A stretch of DNA of 54,293 nucleotides from a virus (lineage: Duplodnaviria; Heunggongvirae; Uroviricota; Caudoviricetes), in IMG/VR virus record IMGVR_UViG_3300028797_000106; one strand, given 5' to 3'. A program made the position numbers and the translations under genes. Below the pieces are notes generated by a model that worked only from the letters and a program-made list of their open reading frames with translations, did no database searches and was not told the DNA's origin. This document shows, piece by piece, positions 6,533 through 54,293 of the stretch. The number at the start of each line of letters is the position of its first letter. Within the stretch, counting starts at the first letter, position 1.

Positions 6533-6533
6533 A

Positions 6534-30113: not shown

Positions 30114-30582
30114 GAAAAAGACTGTCAAGACGGAAGAAGCTCCGGCTGAAGAAAAGGAAAAGTCTATTGGCTTGTTTGATGTTCTTAATATGATTGAAGG
30201 ACAAAAACTGCCGTGGGATAAGCTACCTGACGAATATAAGAAGGCATATAGCCAGTTTATGATAAATCGCTTTGTCAGTTCACAAGAACTGTATGTGCCG
30301 ATTGTCGCTGAACTGGCTTGTATGCAGCTGACTGACGAACAGCACTATCTGATTTTATGCAATACTGTCGCAGGAAATAGGAAACATTGGTTTAATTATA
30401 AGGCATACAAGAAGGAAAAGGTTGAAAAAGACCTTGACATGCTGATTTTTGCCGTTTGTAAAGAATGGGAACTGGGTCGCCGCGAAGCTAAGATGTATAT
30501 AAATAATTTAGAGGAAACGGTAAAAGACCAACTCCGTGAAAAATGGGGTGAGTCCTATATTTACGAAAGAGGAAACAAATAA
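30094..30582 (+). CDS. gp62: Clamp loader small subunit (T4 gp62-like)
   Basis: YSQFMINRFVS..HY.IL..RKHWF..K..REAKMYINNL matches the gp62 family pattern. Confidence 0.7.
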   Translation: MAKGTTRKKTVKTEEAPAEEKEKSIGLFDVLNMIEGQKLPWDKLPDEYKKAYSQFMINRFVSSQELYVPIVAELACMQLTDEQHYLILCNTVAGNRKHWFNYKAYKKEKVEKDLDMLIFAVCKEWELGRREAKMYINNLEETVKDQLREKWGESYIYERGNK

Positions 30583-38156: not shown

Positions 38157-38466
38157 TTTTGAAATTGGAAAAACTTATAAAGCAAAATCTGGAAAGGACT
38201 TCACTGTTATAGATAATTGCGGAGAACTAGTTACTATTCAACACATTAAGCTAATCAGAAAGGCAAGGAAAATTCTTTATTGTGGCGTTCAAGCTGCCAT
38301 CTTTGATTTTGGTTCTGATATGATCCTCGCTGAGGAAATCAAACCGATTGAAGATGAGGAGATTGAATTTGGCTACGTCAAGCAATATACGATTAACAGT
38401 GATGGAGAAACATATGTCAATATCTTTAAAAGACACAAAGAAGAAGAAAAGACCGAAGAAGAATGA
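38149..38466 (+). CDS. Hypothetical protein
   Basis: SD GGAAG before ATG 38149. Confidence 0.6.
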   Translation: MVDFEIGKTYKAKSGKDFTVIDNCGELVTIQHIKLIRKARKILYCGVQAAIFDFGSDMILAEEIKPIEDEEIEFGYVKQYTINSDGETYVNIFKRHKEEEKTEEE

Positions 38467-39133
38467 TATTCCTGATGTTGATAAAAATATCAGCACGGAT
38501 GCAGCTGAAGCGGTCACGGAGGGCGATGCTGAAGTTGCTTTGCAGCAAGGCGTAAACCCGATGGTAATTCCCGGGTACTTTAATAACATTCGTGGTAACT
38601 ATTATGATGGAAACCGTATCATTTGGTTAACTCAAGAGATTGACTGGCCTGTCGTTACGGAAGTATTGCAGAAGTTGAATTTTTATGATGATGGCTCTAA
38701 GGATCCTATCTTTATCTACATCGCTTCACCTGGTGGATTGTGCGATGCAGGATGGGCTCTTATTGATATGATTGATGCGTTCAAGAAGAAAGGCTATATT
38801 ATTAACACGATTTGTGCCGGATCTTGTTCGTCTATGGCAGCTATGATTTTGTCGGCTGGTTCAAAGGGTTATCGCTTTGCATTCCCGTCATCAAGAATTA
38901 TGATTCATCAGGCAGGAATTGGCGGTTGGGGTTTGACCGGAAGAACTGATGAAATCGCAAATGAAGTGCGTGAATTGCAGTACTGGACTGACTTGAGCTC
39001 TAAGTACTTAGCTAAGGTCACTAACAAGAACGAAAAGGAAGTGATTAAGGCTATGTCTTACGATAACTATATGTCAGCGAAGGAAGCAGTTAAGTTCGGT
39101 ATCGTTGATAAGATTAAGGTTGTCCTAGCTTAA
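38414..39133 (+). CDS. clpP: ClpP-like protease proteolytic subunit
   Basis: RIIWL, IYIASPGG, CSSMAA (catalytic Ser), RIMIHQ (His), DNYMSA (Asp). SD GGAG before ATG 38414. Confidence 0.9.
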   Translation: MSISLKDTKKKKRPKKNDIPDVDKNISTDAAEAVTEGDAEVALQQGVNPMVIPGYFNNIRGNYYDGNRIIWLTQEIDWPVVTEVLQKLNFYDDGSKDPIFIYIASPGGLCDAGWALIDMIDAFKKKGYIINTICAGSCSSMAAMILSAGSKGYRFAFPSSRIMIHQAGIGGWGLTGRTDEIANEVRELQYWTDLSSKYLAKVTNKNEKEVIKAMSYDNYMSAKEAVKFGIVDKIKVVLA

Positions 39134-39527: not shown

Positions 39528-40244
39528 ATGAGTTTTCGTGATTTTGTAAATGATAGCAGATTTAAGCAAGAACCACCTAAAAAGGAAGAACCTACTATGG
39601 ACAGATTACCACCAAGAAAGGTGACTCGTCAAGTGACGCAGATGTCACCCCAGCGTAGGAGACAGGTAGAACAGCGAGATGCTTATACCGAATCCCAGGA
39701 AATGCTGGAAACCCTCAATGAAAAACTGAAGCAAGTGCTTTATCGCTTTGGCATGAGCGGCCTTGAACAGGTTGACCAAGCCATCATCGAGACTTGCCGA
39801 AACATGATGAACGGAGGCGGTCTTTATCAGCCGGCACGCCCGTCAAAGCGTAAGCCAGGATTGACCGAATCAGTTGTTCAGCAGACTCGTCAGCAAGCCG
39901 CACCTGCTCGTCGCCCGTCATTCATTGACATCGCAGCAGCTGCTGTTTCGCAGATGGCTCCTATGGGAGATATGAGTGACCACCTACCGCCGCAGGTACC
40001 TGATGCACCAGTTGTCAATGCTCCTGCTGCACCGGCTGCTCAGCCTCAGATGGTAAATCCGAATGTTGTCTTGCCGGTATCACAGCCTGATGCAGGTGCA
40101 GATTACTATGATAACTTGGACCCAAGCACACTTGACCCTGATGCTCTTGAAGCAATGCTTAACGGCAAGGGCGGCGGTGATGTTGGAATCGGAATGGATC
40201 CTAACATGCTTGCGATGATTGGACAGGCAGCGAAAGGCAAATAA
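39528..40244 (+). CDS. Pro/Gln/Ala-rich, probably late/virion protein
   Basis: AATAAATA upstream, MSFRDFVND start, LTES motif, low-complexity C-terminal half. Confidence 0.7.
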   Translation: MSFRDFVNDSRFKQEPPKKEEPTMDRLPPRKVTRQVTQMSPQRRRQVEQRDAYTESQEMLETLNEKLKQVLYRFGMSGLEQVDQAIIETCRNMMNGGGLYQPARPSKRKPGLTESVVQQTRQQAAPARRPSFIDIAAAAVSQMAPMGDMSDHLPPQVPDAPVVNAPAAPAAQPQMVNPNVVLPVSQPDAGADYYDNLDPSTLDPDALEAMLNGKGGGDVGIGMDPNMLAMIGQAAKGK

Positions 40245-40504
40245 TGTCTAAGAAAACTCACGGCAAGAAGAAAGAACTGGTAAAGAAAGAACCAAAGGGC
40301 GTTGTGCTAGAAGGCACCGTTGGTGAAGCCTATGCCAACGCTCTGTTTGACGTAACCCTAGACAACGGTGTGGTGGTTAAATGTACCGTTGCTGGCAAAT
40401 TACGCCAACACAAAATTTTCATTCAGCCAGATGACAGGGTTGAGATTGAACTTGACCCTTACACCTTAACAAAAGGAAGAATCACCTGGAAGATAAAGAG
40501 GTAG
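40244..40504 (+). CDS. infA: Translation initiation factor IF-1 homolog
   Basis: LEGTV.EA..NALF.V.LDNG..V.C.VAGKLR...I.I..DDRV..EL.PY.L.KGRI. Confidence 0.92.
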   Translation: MSKKTHGKKKELVKKEPKGVVLEGTVGEAYANALFDVTLDNGVVVKCTVAGKLRQHKIFIQPDDRVEIELDPYTLTKGRITWKIKR

Positions 40505-40507
40505 CTT

Positions 40508-40726
40508 ATGTTTATTCCGCCATACAAGCCGGACCATCAGTTTTCATATTGGGAAGTTGTCAATAAGTTTCCTGAATATGCTGAGATGCTCCAGCAACAG
40601 AACAATTGGGCACAGTATGAACAAAAGCCTAATTTGGCGGGACTGCCTCCTGAAGTGGTGAAAATGATACCGCAGGCTGTGCGAGATGGTAAAGAAGATG
40701 ATCGCATAGATGCGTGGATCTTATAA
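40508..40726 (+). CDS. Hypothetical protein
   Basis: 72 aa, SD GAGG. Confidence 0.6.
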   Translation: MFIPPYKPDHQFSYWEVVNKFPEYAEMLQQQNNWAQYEQKPNLAGLPPEVVKMIPQAVRDGKEDDRIDAWIL

Positions 40727-40729
40727 ATA
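40722..40729 (+). promoter_or_regulatory. T4-type late promoter
   Basis: TATAAATA in context CTTATAAATACAAT, identical to 53110. Confidence 0.75.
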
Positions 40730-40733
40730 CAAT

Positions 40734-41288
40734 ATGGAAGATATTGAGCTTGCATACACATTATGGCAGAGACTTGAAGAAGCCACTAAGGACGAAAATA
40801 ACCTTAGGGCTCTTAAGCGCATTGTAGTCAATGCAGAAATGCTTTCTGCTATGATGGAAGCCAATGACATCCTGACCGAGGCTGATAAGCAGTTGTATTC
40901 ACTGCAAACATTGAATAAGAAACTCGGTATGGGAACACACAATCGCACGGTTGACAATGTTTTGGTCTTTGTCTTCTTGAAGGGTCTGACAACAATTCCT
41001 ACAAGAACAAAGGCTTATAGATTGGGCTTAATTGACAAAGAAGGACGCTTAATCAAGAAACCTGAAACAAAGGAAGAAGAAGATAGCATTTCCAATCTTG
41101 ACTTGTTGATGTTCAAGCTACGCAAATGGCTCCAAGCCAAAATCCAGTATCTGTCCACAATTTCATGGGTCAAAGGAACTGCTAACGATGTTCGCATTCA
41201 GAACTACTTCTCAAATACTGAAACGCCAGCAAGACAGTACATGGTTAAGCGCATCAATGCCGATTTGGAAAGGTTGCTATCAAAATGA
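40734..41288 (+). CDS. Conserved T4-like myovirus late protein
   Basis: TKAYRLGLIDKEG.LIKKP....E...LD.L.FKLRK resembles a conserved myovirus structural-region family; follows a late promoter. Confidence 0.65.
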   Translation: MEDIELAYTLWQRLEEATKDENNLRALKRIVVNAEMLSAMMEANDILTEADKQLYSLQTLNKKLGMGTHNRTVDNVLVFVFLKGLTTIPTRTKAYRLGLIDKEGRLIKKPETKEEEDSISNLDLLMFKLRKWLQAKIQYLSTISWVKGTANDVRIQNYFSNTETPARQYMVKRINADLERLLSK

Positions 41289-41512
41289 GTTGTCCCGAAT
41301 GTGAAGCACAAAGAGCCGTCTATGGATTTACACTCCAAGTCAACGGCGTTTACATGACCAAGGTTCCAGAGGTTAAGGCTTGCTGTCCAGTAAAGGTCAA
41401 GGTAACGAATTTTGACTCGCTAAAAGTTTATTTCACACACAACAACAAAGCCTTTGAAATGCCTAAGAAACAGTTCATGGCTACAAGCTGGCGTGTTTAC
41501 GATTCATATTGA
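41285..41512 (+). CDS. Small Cys-containing hypothetical protein
   Basis: MSCPECE..., ATGA-coupled. Confidence 0.6.
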   Translation: MSCPECEAQRAVYGFTLQVNGVYMTKVPEVKACCPVKVKVTNFDSLKVYFTHNNKAFEMPKKQFMATSWRVYDSY

Positions 41513-41519
41513 GGTAAGT

Positions 41520-42041
41520 ATGGAATTAGAAGAAGCAAAGCGTGAGCTTAATAAGAGCGGCTTGACCATTGACGAAGGCTACTCAAAAGATAAGTTCATC
41601 ATATCTGGAATTTTTGACTGCGAAGGCACAATGAAGAAGCTTTATTACTACCGTTCGTCCGAAAACTGGACCGACGACATATATGAAGCAACCGAATTCG
41701 TTGCATATCCTGTTCAGAATTTGATGAAAGCAAAAACAGTCTGCACGGAAGGCACAAAGAATACGCTTGGCTGTCCGACTGCAAAACTTGACCACATTGA
41801 AGTTCTTCAGGTGAAGACAATGGGCACAGGCTACAGAAAGACAATTAAACTCATCGGTAAAACACCGGTGAAAATTAACGAAGATTTTGGCATCGGCGTT
41901 GGAGCTCCGCTCGGCGCTGACCAAGGCATTCCTTGCGGCGGTGACTGCAAAGCAGTTGTTGCGAAAAGGATGGACGGCGGCAAACCGAAAACAAGATTTG
42001 ATTTTAAGAAGCTGAAGAAAAAGGCTAAGAAGAAGAAATAA
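41520..42041 (+). CDS. Leader-bearing putative internal head protein with basic tail
   Basis: MELEEAKRELNKSGLTIDE leader, second INE site, KKLKKKAKKKK tail; SD GAGG. Confidence 0.65.
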   Translation: MELEEAKRELNKSGLTIDEGYSKDKFIISGIFDCEGTMKKLYYYRSSENWTDDIYEATEFVAYPVQNLMKAKTVCTEGTKNTLGCPTAKLDHIEVLQVKTMGTGYRKTIKLIGKTPVKINEDFGIGVGAPLGADQGIPCGGDCKAVVAKRMDGGKPKTRFDFKKLKKKAKKKK

Positions 42042-42541
42042 TGAACGAGGATTTTGAGAGATCATCGCAGCTGGTAAACGGCTATTTTTATGTAGCCGAA
42101 TATCATCGCATGCATCCTACTGGAAAGCAGCAAGGCTATGATGTAAATCCTCTCATCTTCGTGTTAGGTCCTTGGAAGCACAACGAGAATTGTGTCGTTG
42201 CGGTGAACTTTCATCACATCGCTGACCTTGATGCTCGCTGCCAAATCCTGAAGACGATTTCAGATATCGCTGACATCTCAAAATTTGACATCAGAGCAAC
42301 TGAAATAACTGAGGATGTTTTCAGAAGCAAGTTTTCATTCGCAAGTGATGCAATAAGAGTGTATAACCGTATGTCGCTGCGTGAGGTTTACCGCGTAAAG
42401 TCAAACCGCGTAGGACGATATATAGATTGTGAAGGAAATTTCTTACAGGCATCTCCTTCATCAATTATGAACAAGTATTGGCTGAATTATTCAGAGAATA
42501 CAACGGTAGCGGCGAAACAAGTAGAAAACGAGGTTAAGTGA
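42041..42541 (+). CDS. DNA end-protector protein (T4 gp2-like)
   Basis: YDVNPLIFVL..VAVNFHHI resembles the gp2 YD.FPL...G.N.HY pattern; IRVY..R segment. Confidence 0.5.
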   Translation: MNEDFERSSQLVNGYFYVAEYHRMHPTGKQQGYDVNPLIFVLGPWKHNENCVVAVNFHHIADLDARCQILKTISDIADISKFDIRATEITEDVFRSKFSFASDAIRVYNRMSLREVYRVKSNRVGRYIDCEGNFLQASPSSIMNKYWLNYSENTTVAAKQVENEVK

Positions 42542-42813
42542 ATTACGGCAAAATCTATGACAAGATCATAAACCGTGCATTAACTCGAGAAGAATACATT
42601 GTTATAACTGAAGGGCACCACATCCTTCCGCGTTCTGAAGGCGGAAGCAACAAGAAATCAAATAAGGTAGAATTAACTCCTAAGGAACACCACCTCTGTC
42701 ACCTACTGCTGATTCGTAAAGGCATGTGCTTGAAATACTGCTTCCGCAACATGACGCTGCGTGAATATGTTTCAATGAAAATGGCAGAAAAGAAAAAGAA
42801 GCACTTAATTTAA
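42538..42813 (+). CDS. Small HNH endonuclease (Mob-like)
   Basis: IYDKII.RA..EGHHILPRSEGGSN..SN.V.LT.KEH..CH.LL. Confidence 0.85.
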   Translation: MNYGKIYDKIINRALTREEYIVITEGHHILPRSEGGSNKKSNKVELTPKEHHLCHLLLIRKGMCLKYCFRNMTLREYVSMKMAEKKKKHLI

Positions 42814-42826
42814 GATTAAATTTCTA

Positions 42827-42865
42827 ATGTTGAGTATTGACAAGATACTCAGCATTTTTTATTTT
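42827..42865 (+). promoter_or_regulatory. Hairpin-embedded sigma70 promoter/terminator
   Basis: 11-bp stem ATGTTGAGTAT/ATACTCAGCAT with loop TGACAAG; TTGACA-17 bp-TATTTT. Confidence 0.75.
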
Positions 42866-42886
42866 TACCAATAAAGAGGACAACTT

Positions 42887-43762
42887 ATGAAATTCAACGA
42901 AGAAATCTTTAAAGAATATGCAACTAAGTTTGGCTTGCCTGAGGCTACATTTAATGATTCTGCACAGACAAACTGGCGAGGCGATAAACTTATGGAATGG
43001 TTGATGCCGCTTGAACATACTGCTGATGGCGGCTACTTAATGCTAAGAATCGTCAGATGGCGTGACTATCGAGATCCGCGATATGACTGGAAGAAAGAAA
43101 CAGTCAACATCAATGAATTTCATAAATATGAAAGCAAGGATTATTGGTTCGTTACGATTAGACCAGCTGACGCCAATATGCAGTGCAGATATCATGTTAA
43201 CATTCCAACCATTCAAAAGCCAGTATGCAGCGCTGAAACAACGATTGATGAATTGCATGACGCAGCGCTTAGATATGTAAAGCGTAAAACACAAGAAAAG
43301 AAAAACCAGAAGAAATGGAAAATTCGTTCAGAAGCAGCCGCTGATTACACTGAAGATTTTAAGGAATTCTTTGTCAGACGCGGCTACCGAAATGTTCGCG
43401 TTGGCAGAGCAGTATCAGAAAAAGTTTGTCCTTGGCCGTATTGCTATCGCATCAATTTTTACAATGAACCTGGCCCAATTCAGCATGTTTCAATGATGGT
43501 TGAAGTATCCCGCTTGATGGACAAGTTCAATGTGTATTTCTATAATTCAGAACTTGAAAGATATGATAACATTCATGAAAAGGATAGCAGATATGCATTC
43601 TTCAAAGGTTCAATAGGTATGTTCAAAACAAAGGAAGATGCATTAGCCGCGCTTTCAGCTGCTTTAGATTATGCAGAGAATATCATTAAGCTGCGTGATG
43701 ATCTGAAAAGGAAGATGGATGCACTCAGAATAATTTCTGATGATACTTCTAAAGCGGAATAA
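42887..43762 (+). CDS. Hypothetical protein
   Basis: 291 aa, SD GAGGA. Confidence 0.8.
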   Translation: MKFNEEIFKEYATKFGLPEATFNDSAQTNWRGDKLMEWLMPLEHTADGGYLMLRIVRWRDYRDPRYDWKKETVNINEFHKYESKDYWFVTIRPADANMQCRYHVNIPTIQKPVCSAETTIDELHDAALRYVKRKTQEKKNQKKWKIRSEAAADYTEDFKEFFVRRGYRNVRVGRAVSEKVCPWPYCYRINFYNEPGPIQHVSMMVEVSRLMDKFNVYFYNSELERYDNIHEKDSRYAFFKGSIGMFKTKEDALAALSAALDYAENIIKLRDDLKRKMDALRIISDDTSKAE

Positions 43763-43774
43763 ATTTGTTATATT
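43727..43774 (+). promoter_or_regulatory. Putative middle-type promoter for the topoisomerase
   Basis: AGAATAATTT (within TCAGAA-TAAT-TTCTGA) 42 bp before -10 TATATT (43769). Confidence 0.45.
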
Positions 43775-43809
43775 TTATTTGTTGAGATATAATCAGACAT
43801 AAGGAAGAT

Positions 43810-45693
43810 ATGAAACAATATACAGCAGACAGTATTGACTTTCTTAAGGGTTTGGAAACAATTCGTCGCCGCGCTGACATGTATGTTGGCGCTACCTCTG
43901 GCAAGCCTTCAGATGCTCTGTATCGCCTTTGCCGTGAAGCGATTGACAACTCGCTTGACGAATACCTGGGAGGGTTCAATAAGCAATTATATGTGATTTA
44001 CAACACCAAGACATTTGAAACGATTGTGCTAGACAATGGTCGTGGTATTCCTGTGGGTTATAATGCTAAGGCTCAGCAGGACTCATTGACACTTGTTTTT
44101 ACTCAGCTTCATGCTGGTGGCAAATTTGACCACGAAGCGTATAAGACTTCGTCTGGTAAGAACGGCATCGGCCAGAAGGCAATTTCCGCTTTGTCAAAGA
44201 GACTGCAAGTTTGGTCTAACAATGCGAAGGACAAGAAGTGGCATTCTCAGATTTTTGAGAAAGGCGAAATCAAGTCAGAAGTTCTTGTCAATGATCCGCC
44301 TACCGAATTGAAGAAGTTGGTTCCGAAGACTGGAACGATTTTGAAGTGGACACCTGATGATACGATTTTCAAGGACTCACTTGAATTGAACCTGCCTCGC
44401 TTGAAGCATGAACTTCATGATATTCAGTACCTGTGCCCGTTCTTGCACATTCATCTAGTTATTGACGGTGAAGAAATTGAATTCTTCTCTGAAGACGGTC
44501 TCGGTGAACTTGTTGCGAAGGATCCGCTGAACGATTGCATCTTCACATTCTCCGATGAATTTACCGATGTCGCTTTGAATTTCACAAAGGGCGACTCAAA
44601 CAGCTTCAAGAGCTTCGTGAACATTTGCTACACGAACCTTGGCGGTACTCATCTTGATGGTTTGAAGCGTGCTATCTGTAATGTTGTCAAGGACAACTCA
44701 AAACAGAAGATTTTGAATGATGATATTCTTGAAGGTATCATTGGGGCAATTCATCACCGAATGGCAGAGCCTCAATATCAAGGACAGACAAAGAATGAAT
44801 TGACGAATAGCGAAGTCACTCAAGAAATCATTGACAAGCTGACGCCTGAACTTGAAAAATTCTTCAAGAAGAACAAGCCTTTGCTCAAGCGCATTGTTGA
44901 ATATGCTGAAAAGATGCTTGAACAAAGAAATAAGATGAAGGCATCAAAGGACCTCTTGAAGGGACTTAAAACGCTGAACGCTTCTGCAAACAGAATTTCA
45001 GATAAGTTCTTAGACGCTGACCGCCGTAAGTATAAGAACCCGAAAGACCTTGAAATGTTTATCGTTGAAGGTGACTCCGCAGGTGGTCACTTTAAGCAGG
45101 CTCGTGAAGGTTTCCAAGGTGAGTTGAAAATCAGAGGTAAGATCATCAACGCTGCTAAGGCAAGTCCAGAAGACTTGTTTGGTAAACCTGGCAAGAAGGG
45201 CGAAGCAAAAGAAGGCAACAGAGAAATCAAGGACCTCGTTGCTGCTTTGGGTTGCGGCATCGGTGAGAACTATGATGAAGCAAAGTTGAGATTTAACAAA
45301 GTAATCATTCTATCTGACGCGGATGTTGACGGACAGCACATCGCTAACTTGTGTTTGGCATTCTTTATAAATTACATGCCAGATCTTGTTAAAAACGGAC
45401 ATGTTTACATCATTGATGCTCCGTTGTTCATCGCCACATCTGCAAAGCACAAAGTGTTTGGAATGACCCGTGCTGAAGTTGATGCACAGATGAAGAAACT
45501 CAAGTGTTCTGACTACACCGTCACTCGTCTTAAGGGTTGGGGAGAAACTTCGCCTGAACAGCTAAGCGAACTCTGCTTGAACCCGAAGACAAGAAAACTC
45601 ATCCAGATTAAGTGGACTGATAAAACTGAAGCGATGTGTGAGCAGACGATGGGTGGAGATGTAGCATTCCGTAAGGAACTTCTTGGGATCTAA
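43810..45693 (+). CDS. gyrB: Type IIA topoisomerase subunit B (GyrB/ParE-like; T4 gp39+60 equivalent)
   Basis: EAIDNSLDE, DNGRGIP, LHAGGKF, QTK, EGDSAGG, RGKIIN, DADVDG.HI, RLKGWGE. Confidence 0.95.
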   Translation: MKQYTADSIDFLKGLETIRRRADMYVGATSGKPSDALYRLCREAIDNSLDEYLGGFNKQLYVIYNTKTFETIVLDNGRGIPVGYNAKAQQDSLTLVFTQLHAGGKFDHEAYKTSSGKNGIGQKAISALSKRLQVWSNNAKDKKWHSQIFEKGEIKSEVLVNDPPTELKKLVPKTGTILKWTPDDTIFKDSLELNLPRLKHELHDIQYLCPFLHIHLVIDGEEIEFFSEDGLGELVAKDPLNDCIFTFSDEFTDVALNFTKGDSNSFKSFVNICYTNLGGTHLDGLKRAICNVVKDNSKQKILNDDILEGIIGAIHHRMAEPQYQGQTKNELTNSEVTQEIIDKLTPELEKFFKKNKPLLKRIVEYAEKMLEQRNKMKASKDLLKGLKTLNASANRISDKFLDADRRKYKNPKDLEMFIVEGDSAGGHFKQAREGFQGELKIRGKIINAAKASPEDLFGKPGKKGEAKEGNREIKDLVAALGCGIGENYDEAKLRFNKVIILSDADVDGQHIANLCLAFFINYMPDLVKNGHVYIIDAPLFIATSAKHKVFGMTRAEVDAQMKKLKCSDYTVTRLKGWGETSPEQLSELCLNPKTRKLIQIKWTDKTEAMCEQTMGGDVAFRKELLGI

Positions 45694-45701
45694 GGAGAAA
45701 T

Positions 45702-45890
45702 ATGGAACCACAAACCGTAAGTATTGAATACATGCCGATTACCGAAATGCATCGCATGATTTATCCGGATGTTGCCTACGAGGTAATCTGTCCTGGTGAA
45801 TGGACCGATGAACAAATTGCGGCATGGTATGAAAAAAGACATTCGCATATCAGACACAAAGGAATTAAAGTTCTGAAAATTAACCACTAA
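45702..45890 (+). CDS. Hypothetical protein
   Basis: 62 aa, SD AAGGAG. Confidence 0.65.
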   Translation: MEPQTVSIEYMPITEMHRMIYPDVAYEVICPGEWTDEQIAAWYEKRHSHIRHKGIKVLKINH

Positions 45891-45894
45891 CCTA

Positions 45895-45923
45895 TTTACA
45901 TTCGGGATTGAATTTGTTATTTT
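45895..45923 (+). promoter_or_regulatory. sigma70-like promoter
   Basis: TTTACA-17 bp-TATTTT with TG; context CTATTTACATTC shared with 4221. Confidence 0.65.
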
Positions 45924-45929
45924 TATTAC

Positions 45930-46325
45930 ATGAGAATGGGTAGCTTTATTTCAGAAGTCTTAGTCAAGTATCAAGCTTTCTACGATGAATTCATTTATGA
46001 AAAAGTCAATAGGAAGTTTTTATGGAAAGGCGATACAGCCTTGGCTAGGAAACCCATTTTCTACAGCGGCGACGGATTCCTGTTTGACTATTCCGCTTAC
46101 AAAGACATAAAAGTGACAAAGGAAAACTGCGAGATCATCGCAGGTTCCAATCTCGAGGTTAAAATTTGGGACATCGAGAACATCTCAAAAGAAAAAGCCG
46201 AAGAAATCATGTATGCAAACATGGAGGCTTTGATGAGATGTGAAACAGTCATTGAAAAAGCAAAGAAAATACAAGTCATTGTAAAGGAAAGCAAACATGG
46301 GAATAGCAGACTTCATGGAATATGA
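45930..46325 (+). CDS. Hypothetical protein, probably leaderless
   Basis: 131 aa; ATG 7 nt after the -10, no SD. Confidence 0.65.
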   Translation: MRMGSFISEVLVKYQAFYDEFIYEKVNRKFLWKGDTALARKPIFYSGDGFLFDYSAYKDIKVTKENCEIIAGSNLEVKIWDIENISKEKAEEIMYANMEALMRCETVIEKAKKIQVIVKESKHGNSRLHGI

Positions 46326-47769
46326 AACTGACCCGAACGCAAAGAATGTTGACGCCGATGGGTTGTTAAAGAAAAATATGTATGACTACGGTATGGATGT
46401 TATATCCGACCGTGCATTGTCAGATTTTCGTGATGGGTTGAAACCCGCACAAAGACGCCTCCTTAAAACCGCAGAAGATCTTAAGGCTTACTGGCAAAAC
46501 AAGACAGTAAAGTCTGCAAGAATTACGGGTGATGCGATGGGCAAGTACCATCCGCATAGCTCTGCATACGGATCTTTGGCAACAATGGTGACCTGTGAAT
46601 ATCCGTTGTTCCACGGACAGGGAAACTGGGGTTCATTGACTGATGGACCTGCTGCTGAAAGATATACCGAAGCCAAGATTTCTCAGCTTGGCATGAAGAT
46701 GCTTGAATGCAATGATGTTGCGGAAATGGTGCCGAATTACACAGGTGAATTTATGGAACCTGTTGTTATCCCGACACGCTTCCCTAACTTCTTTGTCAAT
46801 GAATGTTCAGGCATCGCTGTAGGTTTGTCTGTGAACATTCCTTCCCACAACTTGAAGGAAATTGTGGAAGCATTCAAGGTTGTCGTCAAGAAGGGTCAGG
46901 CAACAAAGGTGAAGGACATTATGAAGCACCTTCATGGACCTGACTACAAGTATGGCGGCAAGATCATTTCAACACCGCAGGAAATTGCGGAAGTTTATGA
47001 AAAGGGCGAAGGTAAGATTACATATGAATGTGAATATGACCTAAAGCCAGAAAAGAGAAATCTGCTTTTGACCATCACAGGATATTGCCCAGGATTTAGC
47101 CCGAACTCGTTCATGAAGAAAATGGACAGTCTTATTGACGAAAACATTGTCCTCTATGTGAACGACTCTTCAACAAAGACCGACCCTTGTAAGCTAGAAG
47201 TGCTTATCAAGTCAAAGGAAGATTTTGAGAAGAAAATCAAGAAGCATTTGACAGTATCCGAATCTTACAGATTCTATGCGATTGAAAGAAAGAAATCTGC
47301 TGAGGTTGAAAAGGATGTTGACACATCCGTTCTTATCCCGAACATGGTTGACCTAATGAATATGTGGGTTGACTGGAGAAAAGGGGTGGAAACTCAAATG
47401 TGTAAGGTTGAAAAGGATTTGACCGCTGAAAGAAAGCAGAAAGCTGAATGGCGCTTGCTCGCTTCAAGGAACCTTAAAACCATAGTTAAAGCGCTTGAAA
47501 CGGATAACCCGATAGATTACCTGGCCAACAATTTACCAGGCCTCAAAGGGTCTTCAAATGCGCTTGAGGGTGCCAAATATATCTGCGACCAAAGAGTTAT
47601 TTCACTTCAAAAGGTTGACCAAGAAAAGACGGAAGCGGATATAGCAGAACATCAGAAACATATTGAAGAACTCGATTATGACATCGCTCACATTGATGAA
47701 GTTGTCATTCGAGAACTTGACAAACTGAAGCCGTTCTTCCGTGACAGAAAGTTAAAGGTGGCAGCTTAA
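46297..47769 (+). CDS. gyrA: Type IIA topoisomerase subunit A (GyrA/ParC-like without CTD; T4 gp52 equivalent)
   Basis: DFRDGLKPAQRR, GKYHPH, GQGNWGS, AAERYTEAK (catalytic Tyr), GIAVGLSVNIPSHNL. Confidence 0.93.
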   Translation: MGIADFMEYETDPNAKNVDADGLLKKNMYDYGMDVISDRALSDFRDGLKPAQRRLLKTAEDLKAYWQNKTVKSARITGDAMGKYHPHSSAYGSLATMVTCEYPLFHGQGNWGSLTDGPAAERYTEAKISQLGMKMLECNDVAEMVPNYTGEFMEPVVIPTRFPNFFVNECSGIAVGLSVNIPSHNLKEIVEAFKVVVKKGQATKVKDIMKHLHGPDYKYGGKIISTPQEIAEVYEKGEGKITYECEYDLKPEKRNLLLTITGYCPGFSPNSFMKKMDSLIDENIVLYVNDSSTKTDPCKLEVLIKSKEDFEKKIKKHLTVSESYRFYAIERKKSAEVEKDVDTSVLIPNMVDLMNMWVDWRKGVETQMCKVEKDLTAERKQKAEWRLLASRNLKTIVKALETDNPIDYLANNLPGLKGSSNALEGAKYICDQRVISLQKVDQEKTEADIAEHQKHIEELDYDIAHIDEVVIRELDKLKPFFRDRKLKVAA

Positions 47770-48863
47770 TGAATGAATTGAAGATACCTATTCAGAATGC
47801 TTATGTGTATACATACCATAAGTATTGCTATACCCTTATGGAAGGTATGCACATTCAGATTACGCCGTGGCATAACGAGCGTGGATATACATTTATGTCC
47901 AGCCCGTGTTTTTGCTACAGCACTTGCGCTAAGGACATTAAGAACAACTACTGTGACTTTAAAGATAACCCGATTGACCTACTTTTATCACAAAAGCGTT
48001 TGGCCTTTTTGAATAAAGTAATCGTTGACCGAGATTTTTCAAGCTGTGTAGGATGTCCTAAATTCGCAATGCGTGATGATAGCGGATTTTGGTATGAAGA
48101 CGACTTTAAGTTCCTGTTTGGCGAAAAGACAGGAACGCTGCATTTTGATATGTTCAAAAATCGTCATATCTCAACCGTCTTCCCAAGAGGCCTATTCCTA
48201 AACTTAGGATCATGCTGTAATTTGAAATGCAGAACCTGTCGTAATGATTTTATCACAAAGCACTGGGATTTGACTGATGATGAAATCAACCAGTTTGCTT
48301 ACATAGCAAGACATTGCGATTTGCTAGCTTTGGGTGGCGATGGTGAGTTCTTTATGAACCCGAATTATACTCGCATTCTAAATCAGGATTTGCGGTCAGA
48401 CTCTCAGCTATGCAAGATTATGATCATGACGAATGGCACAATGTTCACTGAAAAGCGCTGGAACCTACTGCCTGATACATCTAAGAGCTTAATTCACGAA
48501 ATCAAGATTACCTTAGATGCAGCAACGCCTGAAACCTATGAAAAGGTTCGTGGTCCAGTCGGCTGGAAAATGCTGATGAAGAACATGCCGTTTATTCTTG
48601 ACCTTAAAAAGCAGTATGGTTTTGAACTTGCTTCAACATATACCATAAGTAAGTATAATGTTCAGGATGTAGAGAAATTCTATGACTTCGCTAGAGGACT
48701 TGGGTTTGACAATGTCATGTTTCAGTTTGCTCGTGATTTGTTCCATCCTGAAACAGGCAAGGGCGAGGACTTCAAACTACCCGACGATAAGCGTAATGAG
48801 ATTATGAACTATCTGCTTAAGCGTAGAGAACAAGAAGGTTTCGCAAGGTTAGTGATTGAATAA
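47769..48863 (+). CDS. Radical SAM enzyme with N-terminal Cys cluster
   Basis: CNLKCRTC (CX3CX2C), GGDGEFF, TNGT, ITLDAA..ETYEKVR; extra CFC..C and CVGCP cysteines. Confidence 0.88.
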   Translation: MNELKIPIQNAYVYTYHKYCYTLMEGMHIQITPWHNERGYTFMSSPCFCYSTCAKDIKNNYCDFKDNPIDLLLSQKRLAFLNKVIVDRDFSSCVGCPKFAMRDDSGFWYEDDFKFLFGEKTGTLHFDMFKNRHISTVFPRGLFLNLGSCCNLKCRTCRNDFITKHWDLTDDEINQFAYIARHCDLLALGGDGEFFMNPNYTRILNQDLRSDSQLCKIMIMTNGTMFTEKRWNLLPDTSKSLIHEIKITLDAATPETYEKVRGPVGWKMLMKNMPFILDLKKQYGFELASTYTISKYNVQDVEKFYDFARGLGFDNVMFQFARDLFHPETGKGEDFKLPDDKRNEIMNYLLKRREQEGFARLVIE

Positions 48864-49834
48864 TGCACGTTTTATTACCCAAGATTGACATACCTTATCA
48901 AGTAAACAAGAATAAGAAGAAATACACATCTGAATTGGTGCTTCTGATTAAGACCAACAATGCCGGTGATTTTGTCACCTGGCTTGATTGGCATTTGAAC
49001 TATGTTAAGGTAGACCACATTGCGATTTATGATAATGAAAGCGAGATTGCCATACCTCGTATGATTAAGCAGTATGGCGACCGCATTTCATATTTCAGAG
49101 TAGAAGGCAAACCGCATCAGGCTGAGATTTACACAAACCATGTAAGGAATGTGTCAGAAGCCCAGTATGTTTTGCCGATTGACGATGACGAATACATCTA
49201 TTCCGAAATTGACTTCAATGGCTACCTGCGAGCTATGGAGCCTGAAAAGCTGGCGCTGCATTCCATCTTGATGGTGCCGCACAAGCCACTTGAAAAGCGT
49301 CATAACAAGCCGGTATTTGAAATATGCGACAGTTTGGTGCAGCAAGACATTCGTGAAAACCGCGAAGTCAAGACAGTCGTGAACACCGACTACAGCCATT
49401 TCTACTTTGATGTCAAGACTTATGTGGACGCTCACCCATCGCCTGTCTACGAAGGCATACCCGATTGGATTGACATCCCATTGACGCCTGATGTAGAACT
49501 ACCGCCTGACCGTGGCACCGATTTTAACTTCTCACTGGCTGGCACTGTGCATAACCCGATTACAATGACCGAGGATGGTCAGCAAATTTGGGCACAGGAT
49601 ATGCACCTGAACCCTGTGTATGGTTTCTTGTCCAGTCACCCAAATGTGCCATCTGAAATTTTCATCGCACATACGAAGGTCCGTTCTCGTGAAGAATGGG
49701 AATGGAAATGTAAGGTCAGAAAAGTGGTCGCTGATATGAACTGCGACTATTATGATTCCCAATATGAACTCTTTGACAATGTTTATACCTATCCACTAGC
49801 CAAATTTACTGGCTTCAAAGATCGTTATAAATAA
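48863..49834 (+). CDS. Glycosyltransferase (GT92/GT2-like, GT-A)
   Basis: WLDWH....VDHIAIYDNES, Q...Y..., YVLPIDDDEYI (DxDE), KTVV, IAH. Confidence 0.8.
   Translation: MHVLLPKIDIPYQVNKNKKKYTSELVLLIKTNNAGDFVTWLDWHLNYVKVDHIAIYDNESEIAIPRMIKQYGDRISYFRVEGKPHQAEIYTNHVRNVSEAQYVLPIDDDEYIYSEIDFNGYLRAMEPEKLALHSILMVPHKPLEKRHNKPVFEICDSLVQQDIRENREVKTVVNTDYSHFYFDVKTYVDAHPSPVYEGIPDWIDIPLTPDVELPPDRGTDFNFSLAGTVHNPITMTEDGQQIWAQDMHLNPVYGFLSSHPNVPSEIFIAHTKVRSREEWEWKCKVRKVVADMNCDYYDSQYELFDNVYTYPLAKFTGFKDRYK
49826..49833 (+). promoter_or_regulatory. T4-type late promoter
   Basis: TATAAATA directly upstream of the gp15-like gene. Confidence 0.75.
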
Positions 49835-49840
49835 AATAAG

Positions 49841-51217
49841 ATGAGTAATTGGAAACAGTCAGATTATGATCCGTCTATAAACGGTTGGCACAAGGGCGTC
49901 ATTGATGGCGCTTCTCGTGGCGGCTATGCTAAGAACTACTTCTTCGCAGATTCGTTCAAAACATACTCGACCGCCTTTGCCAATTTCTTCCGTAGCATTC
50001 ATGTTTACCGTTATGATGAAAACGGTGAACCTGTTAAGGACATTGAAGTTCCTATTAAGTTTGGTCCACGCTCCAAGGCATTTGATTTTCGTGTTGAGCG
50101 TGAAAGCGGTAAGAAGTATTACATCCCGCTGCCAAACATTACATTCCGTTATACCAGCTTTGCATTTGACGCTGAAAGAGCTGCTGGCTTGAATGAAACA
50201 AGAACATTCTATTCAAAGTTCTTCGAGCACAACAACATTTCAATAAGAATGCAGAATAAGTTCTGGAGCGATATTCAGCCACAGCCTTATGACATCGGCA
50301 TTACGCTTGAATTGAAGACTGAATACCTTTCTGACGCTGACCAAATCACTCAACAGGTATTGGCACAGTTCACACCGGACCGCTATTTCAATGTTAAGGA
50401 ATTTTGGTTCACGAACATGCGCCGTTCAATACAAGTTTTATTGAATGACATTTCTCAAGATGTTCAGTCCGAGGCAATGGGCGAAGATCAGAAGCGTGAA
50501 ATCACGACTACCTTCAACTTCACCATTAAGGGCTGGGTCTACAAGCCGATTGAAATTGGCTACATCATTGACCAAATCAATGTTAAGATGTCAACCGCCG
50601 GCAACACCGACCATGTGTGGCAGAACTCAATGAGCGGTAACGTTGAAGGCGATGAAGACGACCAGAACAGCTATTTCTTTGAGCGATATGATTTCGGCAA
50701 GATATACGGCACGAAGATTGGCCGTATGTCAGCAGTTGTGCCTGAAAGCATCATACCGCAATATGATCCTTCCACAAGCGGGTACTATACAAAGATTGAA
50801 TACAAGGAGCTGCCGGATATTGAGAACTATCCGTGGGGCGCCAAGCAGTTGTATGCTACCTATGAACGCTGGGATCCTACAAGTGCCTTTTACAAACAGA
50901 TGACGGTTGATGGGCAACCAAACACAGCAGCATGTAAAGACCTGATGGTCAGAAGCTCGGCAGATGAACAATTCGGTTATAAATTTGAAGTAGAATATGA
51001 TAAAGGTTTCGGCTCAGTCAGTGCCTATGATGAAGCCACACCTAGAGGCGGAACCATTGTAAAAGCTTGGAAAGACCTTTCTGGCTATGGCGACTTTGTT
51101 TCAGATATCGCTGTTGCCACTTGGAAGTTTGATTACAAGACCGTTGATTTGGGCACTAAGGTCGTTAGTGCGGCGCCAATTATTACTTCTGCAGGCATTT
51201 TGCACGAAGATAAATAA
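49841..51217 (+). CDS. gp15: Tail sheath stabiliser/completion protein (T4 gp15-like) with C-terminal extension
   Basis: AFANFF..I.V.R.D....K.I.VPIKFGP, LP.I.F, PQPYDI.I.L..K..Y.SDADQI.QQ.L..F.P. Confidence 0.8.
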   Translation: MSNWKQSDYDPSINGWHKGVIDGASRGGYAKNYFFADSFKTYSTAFANFFRSIHVYRYDENGEPVKDIEVPIKFGPRSKAFDFRVERESGKKYYIPLPNITFRYTSFAFDAERAAGLNETRTFYSKFFEHNNISIRMQNKFWSDIQPQPYDIGITLELKTEYLSDADQITQQVLAQFTPDRYFNVKEFWFTNMRRSIQVLLNDISQDVQSEAMGEDQKREITTTFNFTIKGWVYKPIEIGYIIDQINVKMSTAGNTDHVWQNSMSGNVEGDEDDQNSYFFERYDFGKIYGTKIGRMSAVVPESIIPQYDPSTSGYYTKIEYKELPDIENYPWGAKQLYATYERWDPTSAFYKQMTVDGQPNTAACKDLMVRSSADEQFGYKFEVEYDKGFGSVSAYDEATPRGGTIVKAWKDLSGYGDFVSDIAVATWKFDYKTVDLGTKVVSAAPIITSAGILHEDK

Positions 51218-51245
51218 AATAAAAGATATTCAAAAGGGTTTAGAA

Positions 51246-51764
51246 ATGAAGAAGACAAACACACAAAATAAGATCTGCCGTAACTCTTTGGAAGATATCA
51301 TTGAAAAGTACTTTGATGTCGCCGAAGAAGGCGGTCTTGGATATGATGCCGAAACAATGGCTGAGTATATTTCAGAAAACGTTGGCCTTTCAAAGGACGA
51401 AGTTAAAAAGGAATACGGCCAGATCATTGAAGCGGCTTGTGCTTTTGATGAAAAAGCATACCTCAGGGCTTGCGATAAGAAGTTCTATGCTTCCGAATTG
51501 AAGGAATCATTCAGGGACTTCTGTCAGGCAAAGAGCGAGCGTCAGTTGAATGAAGAATGCGACTTGAAGTTGGAAGACCTTTTCAACGACAAGAGCTTGT
51601 CAACATTCCGTAAGACAACCGCTTACCGCAACGCTGACCAGGAAGGCAAATACCACATGATTTGGAAGTTCCTTGTTGGCTCTTATAACAACAAGATTTG
51701 CAGCGAAGATGAACTAAGCGACCTCTGTATGGAAATTGCCATGCACGACGAAAATCAGTTCTAA
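51246..51764 (+). CDS. Acidic putative internal head/scaffold-type protein
   Basis: TAAATA upstream; LKES and LNEE candidate protease sites. Confidence 0.6.
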   Translation: MKKTNTQNKICRNSLEDIIEKYFDVAEEGGLGYDAETMAEYISENVGLSKDEVKKEYGQIIEAACAFDEKAYLRACDKKFYASELKESFRDFCQAKSERQLNEECDLKLEDLFNDKSLSTFRKTTAYRNADQEGKYHMIWKFLVGSYNNKICSEDELSDLCMEIAMHDENQF

Positions 51765-51789
51765 TAAATAGAATATAAGGAGATTAAAA

Positions 51790-52197
51790 ATGAGTTTTAA
51801 GTCATGGTATCACAATGAATATCTGGTTGAAGATGGTCAGGACCATGTTCAGCAGCAGGGATTGGACCCAGAGGCACAAATTCCTCAGCAGGAAATGCCT
51901 GCTGATAAGGCACCGGCTGCTCCGGCAGGAAACGGTGGTGCATTTGGTCGCTATTTCCAGCAGGGCAACATGAAGTCATCTTTGCAGCAGTTGGGTAAGG
52001 AACTTGGCGACGCCCTTTACAACTTCGCCATCAAGACATACGTCACAAACGATATGTTTGACTCCGAAGACACCAAGCTCAAATATGAAACCGAAGTTCG
52101 TAATAAGATTGCTGAAGACTACAACCTCAAGTTGATTGAAGTTCTTCGTAATGCTGGTATCTTCCTAGCTAACGCTAAGGAAAAGTACACCAAGTAA
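51790..52197 (+). CDS. Putative internal head protein
   Basis: MSFKSWYHNEYLVED leader; TAATAAATA and AAGGAG upstream. Confidence 0.65.
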   Translation: MSFKSWYHNEYLVEDGQDHVQQQGLDPEAQIPQQEMPADKAPAAPAGNGGAFGRYFQQGNMKSSLQQLGKELGDALYNFAIKTYVTNDMFDSEDTKLKYETEVRNKIAEDYNLKLIEVLRNAGIFLANAKEKYTK

Positions 52198-52198
52198 T

Positions 52199-52525
52199 AT
52201 GAAATTAGACGAAGCATTAACAAAGCTAGATAAAGCCGGTGCTCTAGTAGAAAGCAGAACACCGGTTATCTCGCTTGATGAATTTAATCGTCAGGTTCGT
52301 CGCCGCGATGCGGGATGGGTTATCGGCAAATTGAATGATAACCATAATCCTTCCGCTCCTTGGACACTGACCAAGGAAGGTATCGGTCAGATTAGATTCT
52401 CCGTTTGGGTTCATACTGACGGCGACCGTATATCGGTTGATGTTCGCGGTCTCGGCTGTGAACCTGAAGAAGGCGCTTTTAAGGACATTAACAAAATCTA
52501 TAACGACATTTTCGGGGTAAAGTAA
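52199..52525 (+). CDS. Leader-bearing putative internal head protein
   Basis: MKLDEALTKLDKAGALVES leader. Confidence 0.65.
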   Translation: MKLDEALTKLDKAGALVESRTPVISLDEFNRQVRRRDAGWVIGKLNDNHNPSAPWTLTKEGIGQIRFSVWVHTDGDRISVDVRGLGCEPEEGAFKDINKIYNDIFGVK

Positions 52526-52526
52526 A

Positions 52527-53069
52527 ATGGAATTACAGGAAGCATTGGATAAGCTAAGCGCAGCTGGCATGATTGCCGAAGGCTGCTGTGGCGATAAGGA
52601 TAAGAAGGACTGCGACAGCAAATGTTCATGCGGCAAGGAAGGCTGCAAGGGCGAATGCGGCAAGGATAAAAAGAAGAAAAAGAAGAAGGAAATTGAAGAA
52701 GCACTTGATATCTTGGCTCAGTCAGGATTGGTCGCTGAATCATATTGGAGCAACAGCCGTCCTGAAACACGATACGGCAACCGCACAGGTGTTGCTGGAT
52801 ATACATTTCGCGGCGCCAAGCCAGAACGCAAATACGTCAAGATCTTGATTTGCCTTCGTGATGGCGAAAAGACAAAGGCTGAAGTTCATAGAGAACTTGG
52901 CATGCCTGACCCGACATCAAAGGAACATGAAAACTACTACTCATCAGTTTGGCAGGAAATGCGTAAGGCTGGATTGGTTGATTTTGAAAAGACCGGCGGC
53001 AAGACAATTTGGTTCATTACCCCACGCGGCATGGACCTGCTTGACGAAATCGGCGCTACTGAAAACTAA
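52527..53069 (+). CDS. Double-leader protein with Cys/Lys-rich peptide and winged-helix domain
   Basis: MELQEALDKLSAAGMIAEG and IEEALDILAQSGLVAES; CCGDK..CSCGKEGCKGEC; KTKAEVHRELG..EMRKAGLV..WFITPRG wHTH-like pattern. Confidence 0.65.
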   Translation: MELQEALDKLSAAGMIAEGCCGDKDKKDCDSKCSCGKEGCKGECGKDKKKKKKKEIEEALDILAQSGLVAESYWSNSRPETRYGNRTGVAGYTFRGAKPERKYVKILICLRDGEKTKAEVHRELGMPDPTSKEHENYYSSVWQEMRKAGLVDFEKTGGKTIWFITPRGMDLLDEIGATEN

Positions 53070-53080
53070 CTAAAGATTTT

Positions 53081-53106
53081 GGCGGGCCTAAAACGCCCGC
53101 CTTTTT
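53081..53106 (+). terminator. Intrinsic terminator
   Basis: GGCGGGC-CTAAAAC-GCCCGCC-TTTTT. Confidence 0.85.
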
Positions 53107-53111
53107 AGTCT

Positions 53112-53119
53112 TATAAATA
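53112..53119 (+). promoter_or_regulatory. T4-type late promoter
   Basis: TATAAATA right after a terminator. Confidence 0.75.
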
Positions 53120-53135
53120 CAATAAAGGAGAGTTT

Positions 53136-53609
53136 ATGAGCATCAAGACAATATACTTGGACATGGACGGAGTTTTGACAGACTTTAGACGAGGATGCGA
53201 AGACCAAGATGCTATTCAAGGAACTAAAGTTGATTGGCCTAAAATTCATAAGCTAGGAGCTGGCTTTTGGGCTGACTTGGAATGGTTAGAAGGTTCTGAG
53301 GCATTTTATAAGTGGCTAGTCAATTATTGTAAAGAACAGAAGTTGGACCTCTGCATTTTGTCAGCGGTCAATTATTCGGAAGGCGTTGCTGGTAAGCAGG
53401 CGTGGCTAGATAAGCACTGTCCTGAAATACCAAAGCAGAATCGTTACTTTGTCAACTTCGGTAAGCTGAAGAATAAGTATGCGTCTGAAACCGCAGCGCT
53501 GATTGACGATTTTGGTAAGAACATTGAAGCGTTCATTATGGCTAGTGGACGCGGTATCAAGTTTGAAAACCCAACACAGGCTAAAGAGGAAGTCACAAGA
53601 TTAGTATGA
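53136..53609 (+). CDS. HAD-family 5'(3')-deoxyribonucleotidase (NT5C-like)
   Basis: IYLDMDGVLTDF, FWADL.W, ILS, GK..WL, LIDD..KN. Confidence 0.85.
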   Translation: MSIKTIYLDMDGVLTDFRRGCEDQDAIQGTKVDWPKIHKLGAGFWADLEWLEGSEAFYKWLVNYCKEQKLDLCILSAVNYSEGVAGKQAWLDKHCPEIPKQNRYFVNFGKLKNKYASETAALIDDFGKNIEAFIMASGRGIKFENPTQAKEEVTRLV

Positions 53610-54293
53610 CCGATTTTGCTTCAGAATTCGCAAAGGTATTTAGCAATGGTTGTGCGCCACAAGGAACCGACTGGAACGCACCTCGTTATTTTGACAGTCT
53701 AAATAACCCTTGCTACGAAAAGGAAGCAGCTCTATTGAGTTCGCTGACTTCTGAGGCATACTCTCAATTTGGTTTTGAGGTCCAGTACTTTATCAAGAAG
53801 ATCTCGACCAAAGCCGACAAGATATACGGCGAAGATCCACTTGAAAATGTGGAACGCCGTTTCAGATTAAAGGTCTATGCCGAACAGATACCATCAATGC
53901 AGCGAACATATGAACTGCAAGGTATGAGCTACGATGAAATCATCGAGGTTCAGGCGACCATCTTACATTTTGAAGAAGCATCACAGGTTGACTTCGTTAC
54001 TGGCGAAGTGGCATGGAACAAAGTTGAACCGCAGATTGGCGACATCATGTATTTCCCGTGGTGTGATACCTATTATGAGGTGTTGAATGTCAAGCCGTTT
54101 GCGGAAGGAACCACATTCCTTTCAACACCTATCACATATACATTCAGTCTGCGTGCTTGGCGTAATTCTCACGAAAGCGTTGACTTGACAAAGGCCAATG
54201 ATGACAATATGGACCATCTTAGAAGCTATGTTGAGCTATCTGAGACATTCAACATTGACCACAAGACAGATGAGAACAAGTTTGAACATATTG
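53606..54293 (+). CDS. gp14: Neck protein (T4 gp14-like), 3'-truncated by the window (not in the ORF track)
   Basis: Open from ATG 53606 to the edge: ..SEAYSQFGFEVQYFIK..DKIYGEDP..PQIGDIMYFP..YEV..VK matches the gp14 pattern. Confidence 0.75.
   Translation, partial: MTDFASEFAKVFSNGCAPQGTDWNAPRYFDSLNNPCYEKEAALLSSLTSEAYSQFGFEVQYFIKKISTKADKIYGEDPLENVERRFRLKVYAEQIPSMQRTYELQGMSYDEIIEVQATILHFEEASQVDFVTGEVAWNKVEPQIGDIMYFPWCDTYYEVLNVKPFAEGTTFLSTPITYTFSLRAWRNSHESVDLTKANDDNMDHLRSYVELSETFNIDHKTDENKFEHI

Follow-up and report, generated by a model that had tools for sequence, protein, structure and literature searches.

A recurrent N-terminal module on unrelated late proteins of uncultured T4-related phages, a candidate removable capsid-targeting leader

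The virus record IMGVR_UViG_3300028797_000106 comprises 54,293 nucleotides of DNA (this whole stretch is termed the window), in which all genes lie on the + strand. The subject here is a peptide module of about 18 residues which is borne by mutually unrelated small proteins encoded in the window and which may serve as a removable leader for targeting proteins to the phage head. In the module, an amphipathic helix of ~11 residues is followed by a Gly and then by a short run of hydrophobic residues that closes with [LIV]-x-Glu. The region of main interest holds a gene for a protein similar to gp15 of phage T4 and, after it, four small genes; the next genes specify an NT5C nucleotidase and a neck protein resembling gp14. 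Topoisomerase II subunits, a radical SAM enzyme and a ClpP-family protease are encoded upstream. The features are as follows, with protein lengths in amino acids (aa) and bit scores from a profile hidden Markov model (HMM) of the module.

22789-22824, + strand: weak module-like helix-Gly-strand at the C-terminus of a 155-aa protein, without a terminal Glu (HMM, 9.6 bits)
41520-41576, + strand: module copy 1, 19 aa, ending I-D-E, at the N-terminus of a 173-aa protein (pattern; HMM, 17.8 bits)
41880-41963, + strand: segment of the 173-aa protein cargo copying the predicted start of the mature major capsid protein, with I-N-E before it and a Lys-rich tail after it (BLASTP)
49841-51217, + strand: T4 gp15-like tail sheath stabiliser (PF16724; tblastn to cyanophage g15)
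52199-52252, + strand: module copy 2, 18 aa, ending L-V-E, at the N-terminus of a 108-aa protein (pattern; HMM)
52253-52525, + strand: cargo of the 108-aa protein, of no known family (Pfam and PHROGs empty)
52527-52580, + strand: module copy 3, ending I-A-E, at the N-terminus of a 180-aa protein (pattern; HMM)
52581-52685, + strand: Cys- and Lys-rich spacer separating the modules of the 180-aa protein, a lineage-specific insertion missing from the other 25 aligned members of its family
52686-52739, + strand: module copy 4, internal in the 180-aa protein, ending V-A-E (pattern; HMM, 19.7 bits)
52740-53069, + strand: winged-helix (MarR/ArsR-like) cargo domain of the 180-aa protein (phrog_2440, E 6e-5; AF2; Foldseek)
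53606-54293, + strand: T4 gp14-like neck protein, running off the window (PF11649, weak)

An earlier reading of the window from its letters (the sequence-only reading) had described four near-identical modules at these places, each preceding a different domain, and both statements hold. In a six-frame translation the leader pattern matches exactly four times, at residues starting at positions 41526, 52205, 52533 and 52692, and all of these matches fall within + strand open reading frames (ORFs; 41520-42041, 52199-52525 and 52527-53069, the last of which holds two), compared with a mean of 0.005 matches in a codon-shuffle control (n = 200). The profile HMM scores the window copies at 17.8-25.5 bits and reversed window proteins at 4.2 bits at most. 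Three of the four copies sit at the extreme N-terminus, right after the initiator Met; the copies terminate in IDE, LVE, IAE and VAE, and the cargos that follow them are mutually unrelated by BLASTP. The DNA of the copies differs at many synonymous positions, which argues that the peptide itself is under selection. The possibility that the repeat is an element acting at the RNA or DNA level, or a recent DNA repeat, was rejected because of the same differences at synonymous sites.

The module is found well beyond the window. Relatives were drawn from IMG/VR, Logan and NCBI contigs; they include a syntenic IMG/VR contig of 184,671 bp (G001), whose gp15 is 41% identical to that of the window. The profile finds 15 module copies in G001 (14.6-33.1 bits), with reversed sequences reaching at most 5.5 bits. 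These relatives also carry arrays of module genes: at 2.1-3.4 kb of G001 lies a tandem series of small genes each opening M-K-M-x-L-N-E-A-L, and a further array lies at 15.9-18.2 kb of a 266-kb contig (L064). A back-translated DNA pattern retrieved 20 loci from IMG/VR, in large contigs of up to 411 kb.

In total, 44 distinct copies were collected, with the consensus M-(E)-L-N-E-A-L-x-x-L-x-x-A-G-[FL]-[IV]-x-E. They are mostly located directly behind the start Met, whereas seven listed matches are internal. The [LIV]-x-Glu terminus is present in 39 of the 44 copies, and its spacing from the Gly is fixed in 32 of those 39; the P3 residue is Ile in 23, Leu in 9 and Val in 7, and 24 have Gly, Ser or Ala immediately after the terminal Glu. 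Clustering of the cargos of 39 module proteins by BLASTP yields 29 mutually unrelated clusters. The weak C-terminal element of the 155-aa protein has a counterpart in G001, where the ortholog (62104) has a similar C-terminus.

Other searches gave little. The module HMM finds no copy in phage T4, and no module was found in the 642-kb uncultured phage LR756502, which is the top GenBank match of the protein encoded at 30582 (see below). Pfam and PHROGs searches with 30 module or cargo proteins returned the winged-helix match alone, the rest being sub-threshold noise, and an ESM Atlas feature search with residues 1-22 returned no usable match. The AF2 model of the 108-aa protein, built from a two-row alignment, is unusable (pLDDT 42).

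The 180-aa protein (52527) belongs to a winged-helix family in which the fate of the module can be followed. The module is kept in all 26 aligned members, with A7, G15 and E19 invariant, and the family layout is a module, an indel-rich linker straight after the Glu and then a conserved cargo. AF2 models the G001 ortholog (pLDDT 84) with a helix at residues 2-13, no regular secondary structure from there to residue 44, and a MarR/ArsR-like winged helix beyond; the top Foldseek matches are MarR/ArsR regulators. The sequence-only reading had taken the window protein for a polyprotein cut into separate peptides. Two modules are indeed present, but this view rests on a lineage-specific duplication: among the 26 aligned members, only the window protein has the second module and the spacer, a layout which is shared by a near-identical copy in L001. 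The 35 residues of the spacer include eight Cys and a Lys run; 3.7 kb upstream of it is a radical SAM gene (47769-48863), and no evidence of a link was found. A peptide-pattern search of IMG/VR found no relatives of the 180-aa protein, and these were obtained instead via gp15, the protease and a DNA pattern; tblastn of the winged-helix cargo against GenBank phages found nothing.

One module cargo, that of the 173-aa protein (41520), carries a copy of a predicted capsid maturation site. In BLASTP, a segment of this protein is 86% identical over 28 aa to residues 52-79 of the G001 major capsid protein (MCP), which was identified via Pfam Gp23. The MCP sequence L-L-E/DFGIGVG (the stroke marks the putative cut here and below) aligns at the L-T-E/A maturation site of T4 gp23 and is the predicted maturation site of G001; the 173-aa protein reads I-N-E/DFGIGVG at this position. 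Its G001 ortholog, a 67-aa protein, reads L-V-E/DFGIGVG and is without the module, indicating that the module has been gained or lost as a unit. More generally, small proteins are seen that mimic the predicted MCP site and the first ~28 mature residues (DFGIGVG...GADQGIP.GGD.KAV) and then continue into a Lys-rich tail, the loci listed for this copying being window 41880-41963, G001 135976-137265 and L004 1890-2093. Such copies could act as a protease decoy or regulator, or as mimics of the N-arm that insert into the shell. T4 possesses a protease inhibitor, Inh.

Two motifs are enriched upstream of genes, namely TTGTTATATTT and (T/A)ATAAATA. The former lies 24-39 nt ahead of clamp, clamp-loader, topoisomerase and other replication genes, whereas the latter, which is the T4 late-promoter word, precedes the genes for gp15, sheath, portal, MCP, protease and TerL; example positions are 15602, 16482, 18305, 24632, 34497 and 43768 for the early type and 49826, 53112 and 30498 for the late type. 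In the window [TA]ATAAATA occurs 11 times on the + strand and never on the - strand. Nine of the 11 are upstream of a listed start by no more than 100 nt; a tenth (40722) lies 5 nt before an in-frame ATG at 40734. The module genes of the window stand in units headed by two of these sites:

40722-40729, + strand: late-type TATAAATA heading the unit that contains 41520
49826-49833, + strand: late-type TATAAATA heading the gp15 unit that contains 52199 and 52527

The nearest upstream motif is of the late type for all three module genes of the window and for 13 of the 14 checked in G001; for the fourteenth, 2058 on the - strand, the scan found neither motif upstream. A late motif is also present 14-76 nt upstream of 1599, 30582, 39528 and 51790. 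In several cases (T/A)ATAAATA is just 4-8 nt before the ATG, a spacing that suggests leaderless or near-leaderless late mRNAs.

A prohead protease of the Peptidase_S77 (gp21-type) family is encoded in G001 (E 3e-32), with module genes on both sides, and is also present in the relatives L031, L033, L063 and L064; module genes flank it in L031 and L033 as well. In other relatives the genes after the protease likewise begin with the module, one of them encoding a member of the winged-helix family. A complex prediction for the G001 S77 protease (66-row alignment) with residues 1-45 of the winged-helix protein scored 0.00 and was counted neither way. In L033, L034 and L035 (around 5941-6649) the S77 reading frame is broken into two ORFs at one common position, for which the candidate causes are a shared frameshift, an intron or an intein-free split. 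A conserved Ala/Pro-rich protein is encoded just before nrdD, always a few genes after the S77 protease (L029 7056-7466; L031 8297-8785; L063 7439-8032), and contains the helix-Gly-strand unit A-(K/R)-x-T-A-E-x-A-G-Y twice; it may be a core protein and is a candidate partner of the module. The ClpP-family (S14) protease gene of the window (38354-39133) belongs to a conserved block that also includes an IF-1-like S1-domain gene (40244-40504), and the lineage has two protease types, the ClpP-like one and, in relatives, the S77 prohead protease.

Leaders of other kinds occur on several further window proteins. The capsid-targeting sequence (CTS) of T4 is a 10-residue N-terminal sequence removed by the gp21 protease (PMC9026906, PMC3012670). 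N-termini were scored against the first 12 residues of T4 CTS sequences, a scale on which none of 20,000 internal 16-mers reached 30, and the following leaders were recorded:

1599-1628, + strand: T4-CTS-like N-terminus MITIQEFMLE/A of a 564-aa protein (score 36 against the T4 IPII CTS)
30582-30614, + strand: T4-CTS-like N-terminus MHKTFKELLSE/ASVG of a 499-aa P-loop protein (score 35 against the T4 IPIII CTS)
51790-51831, + strand: conserved N-terminus ending Y-L-V-E/D-G of a 135-aa protein (G001 ortholog, WYHNQYLKE/DG)

The sequence-only reading had named related leaders at 1599, 30582 and 51790 and perhaps at 39528 and 170. Those at 1599 and 30582 proved significantly CTS-like and that at 51790 ends in a conserved L-x-E, whereas 39528 is weak and 170 lacks support. 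The L061 ortholog of the 1599 protein retains F-L-N-E/A-R, and the 30582 N-terminus is conserved in its G001 ortholog (66254), with TATAAATA at 76-77 nt upstream in the window phage and G001 alike; 1599 and 51790 have AATAAATA 16 nt and 19 nt upstream, respectively. The 51790 N-terminus is possibly a third kind of leader. The 1599 protein is of no family, and the C-terminal half of the 30582 protein matches T4-like phage genes annotated as nrdC.10, hypothetical protein or ATP-binding protein; judged by their N-termini, both proteins are candidates for packaging. A swap of the T4-type tag for the module on the 1599 ortholog was rejected, the G001 N-terminus being module-like by eye but scoring only 2.7 bits with the HMM.

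The lineage thus seems to keep a T4-type tag on a few large proteins, which supports the idea of such head targeting in these phages. Persistence of that tag alongside the module also suggests that the 18-mer would be a separate device and not a diverged replacement of the T4 tag. We advance only tentatively, as a rather unlikely proposal, that the clade runs two tags. A few large proteins would keep the ancestral T4-type 10-mer, dozens of small cargos with fast turnover would bear the new 18-mer, and the two tags might direct proteins to separate sites or fates within the head.

As for the lineage itself, GenBank phages give no megablast match to window positions 41000-53200. The closest of them are T4-type cyanophages, with ~30% identity across half of gp15, and the window phage accordingly ranks as an uncultured giant myovirus that is related to T4 and branches deeply. 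A 264,180-bp metagenomic contig likewise encodes the 108-aa protein; there, tail sheath, DNA methylase and helicase genes follow downstream of the window, and the relatives share the gene order downstream as far as the helicase. One clade phage genome (L064, also L069; JAZLKX010000052.1, 266,469 bp) is binned within a 1.7-Mb metagenome-assembled genome labelled 'Bacilli bacterium', which may be a hint of the host or a binning artefact.

The recurrence, modularity, peptide conservation, N-terminal position, L/I/V-x-E end and late-type context of the module, and the S77 protease in relatives, are established. We see about an even chance that the module is a removable capsid-targeting propeptide, an analogue of the T4 CTS with a different and longer consensus. 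The leader would guide small, late-made proteins to the prohead's scaffolding core; the gp21-type (Peptidase_S77) protease would then remove it by cutting after the terminal Glu, and the freed cargo would be packaged along with the DNA and probably injected. The sequence-only reading had likewise proposed a modular address tag that loads varied cargo. Reuse on unrelated cargos, a T4-like lineage, S77 in relatives, the L/I-x-E end and late-type units near head, neck and packaging genes all favour this proposal, and all are circumstantial.

Several points weigh against such a leader. The phages are uncultured, and the window shows no S77 protease, whose presence in this genome is argued from synteny. 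No sequence similarity between the module and the T4 CTS is detectable, T4 itself has no copy, and the T4-type N-termini on other window proteins mean that a second tag needs an explanation of its own. The two module copies beside the G001 protease are without the terminal Glu. Some two thirds of the cargos have an acidic pI of 4-5, in contrast to the basic proteins that are classically found packed together with DNA. Finally, the seven internal matches and the Glu-less C-terminal copy (22789-22824) fit a binding module better than a pure propeptide.

This last point bears on the main rival, in which the module is a small docking or oligomerisation unit that is not cleaved and links diverse late proteins to a single common partner, either within the virion or inside the infected cell, with the Glu as a contact residue. 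Internal, tandem and C-terminal copies speak for such a unit, as do the two related AE-x-AGY units of the Ala/Pro-rich protein after the protease, which suggest like-with-like pairing, and a weak, sub-threshold similarity to the SHOCT domain. The N-terminal bias, the near-invariant [LIV]-x-E and the hypervariable linker behind it are, however, what a removable leader predicts, and docking leaves the copy of the MCP cleavage site in one cargo unexplained; we regard it as unlikely, although a serious contender. The shared N-terminus might instead have no addressing role and be a remnant of one fast-evolving paralogous family, or have been spread by recombination. Local duplication predicts tandem arrays like those of G001 and L064, but the cargos vary in length, include a winged-helix domain and an MCP-derived segment, and fall into 29 clusters unrelated by BLAST. 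Moreover, synonymous divergence with peptide conservation amounts to purifying selection on the module, and the module-less G001 ortholog of the 173-aa protein points to gain or loss as a unit; common descent of this kind appears improbable. It is more doubtful still that the module is an N-terminal tag recognised by another phage machine, which might be the ClpP-like protease (38354-39133), with the module as a degron, or the two GroES-like co-chaperonins, with it as a binding tag. The window does contain a ClpP-family protease (E 1e-39) and two GroES-like genes, and the 173-aa module protein is encoded 2.4 kb downstream of ClpP; yet the ClpP gene stands behind an early-type motif whereas module genes are late, no unfoldase is seen in the window, and the module is not known to resemble ClpX or ClpA N-degrons.

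If the module is a packaging tag, as the propeptide interpretation holds, a profile search would list the injected proteins of uncultured giant phages, which offer no means of listing them at present, comprising at least 29 cargo families that are nearly all of unknown function, and a second, longer tag would be available for loading foreign proteins into phage heads. Phage-injected proteins act before any phage gene expression, and those of T4 include anti-restriction factors. If two tags do coexist as proposed above, the 18-mer would offer a sequence-only catalogue of injected proteins, which would be candidate anti-defence effectors. Were the module an uncleaved docking unit, it would still mark a large set of late proteins sharing one partner.

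Known systems resemble the module to different extents. Its stretch L-x-x-L-x-x-L-x-x-x-G-I-I-T-E resembles the first two thirds of SHOCT (PF09851), but the second SHOCT helix is missing; in Pfam searches one module protein of a relative reaches 15.3 bits against a cut-off of 27, and the window proteins give no match. Encapsulin cargo-loading peptides are short portable tags that load unrelated cargo into a shell of HK97 fold. Unlike the proposed leader, these tags are usually C-terminal, are not cleaved and bind the shell protein directly, and their sequence is unrelated to the module. In phiKZ-like giant phages such as SPN3US, a gp21-related protease cuts after Glu in a short motif, and paralogous head proteins share conserved N-termini that have been proposed to be CTS-like; in contrast to the module, however, their propeptides, borne by ejection and inner-body proteins, are mostly longer than 100 residues, the motif is A/S/G-x-E, the cargos are large and the lineage is a different one (PMC5694885, PMC9026906).

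The T4 CTS and the module have in common a short leader right after the Met, unrelated fast-evolving cargos and an L/I-x-E end, in a lineage whose head, neck and tail genes are of T4 type, with an S77 protease in relatives and with the genes partly in tandem. They differ in length (18 residues for the module, 10 for the CTS) and in sequence (M-x-L-N-E-A-L-x-x-L-x-x-A-G-[FL]-[IV]-x-E for the module, MKTYQEFIAE for the CTS); the module is, moreover, carried by many more cargo families, and some of its copies are internal or C-terminal. Mullaney and Black in 1996 reportedly dealt with the CTS carried by T4's internal proteins IPI, IPII, IPIII and Alt. The T4 record reads MKTYQEFIAE/A for IPII and IPIII and MKTFKEF for IPI. 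The gp21 protease of T4 cleaves after L/I-x-E (PMC9026906), and the internal proteins of T-even phages are diverse, with only the CTS in common (PMC3012670). As the T4 CTS has also been used already for packaging foreign proteins, it is an established precedent (PMC3012670, PMC9026906), and the claim of the sequence-only reading to an uncharacterised kind of programmable packaging system was overstated. New here are the tag itself, how many cargo families bear it, and the fact that T4-type leaders exist beside it in an uncultured clade.

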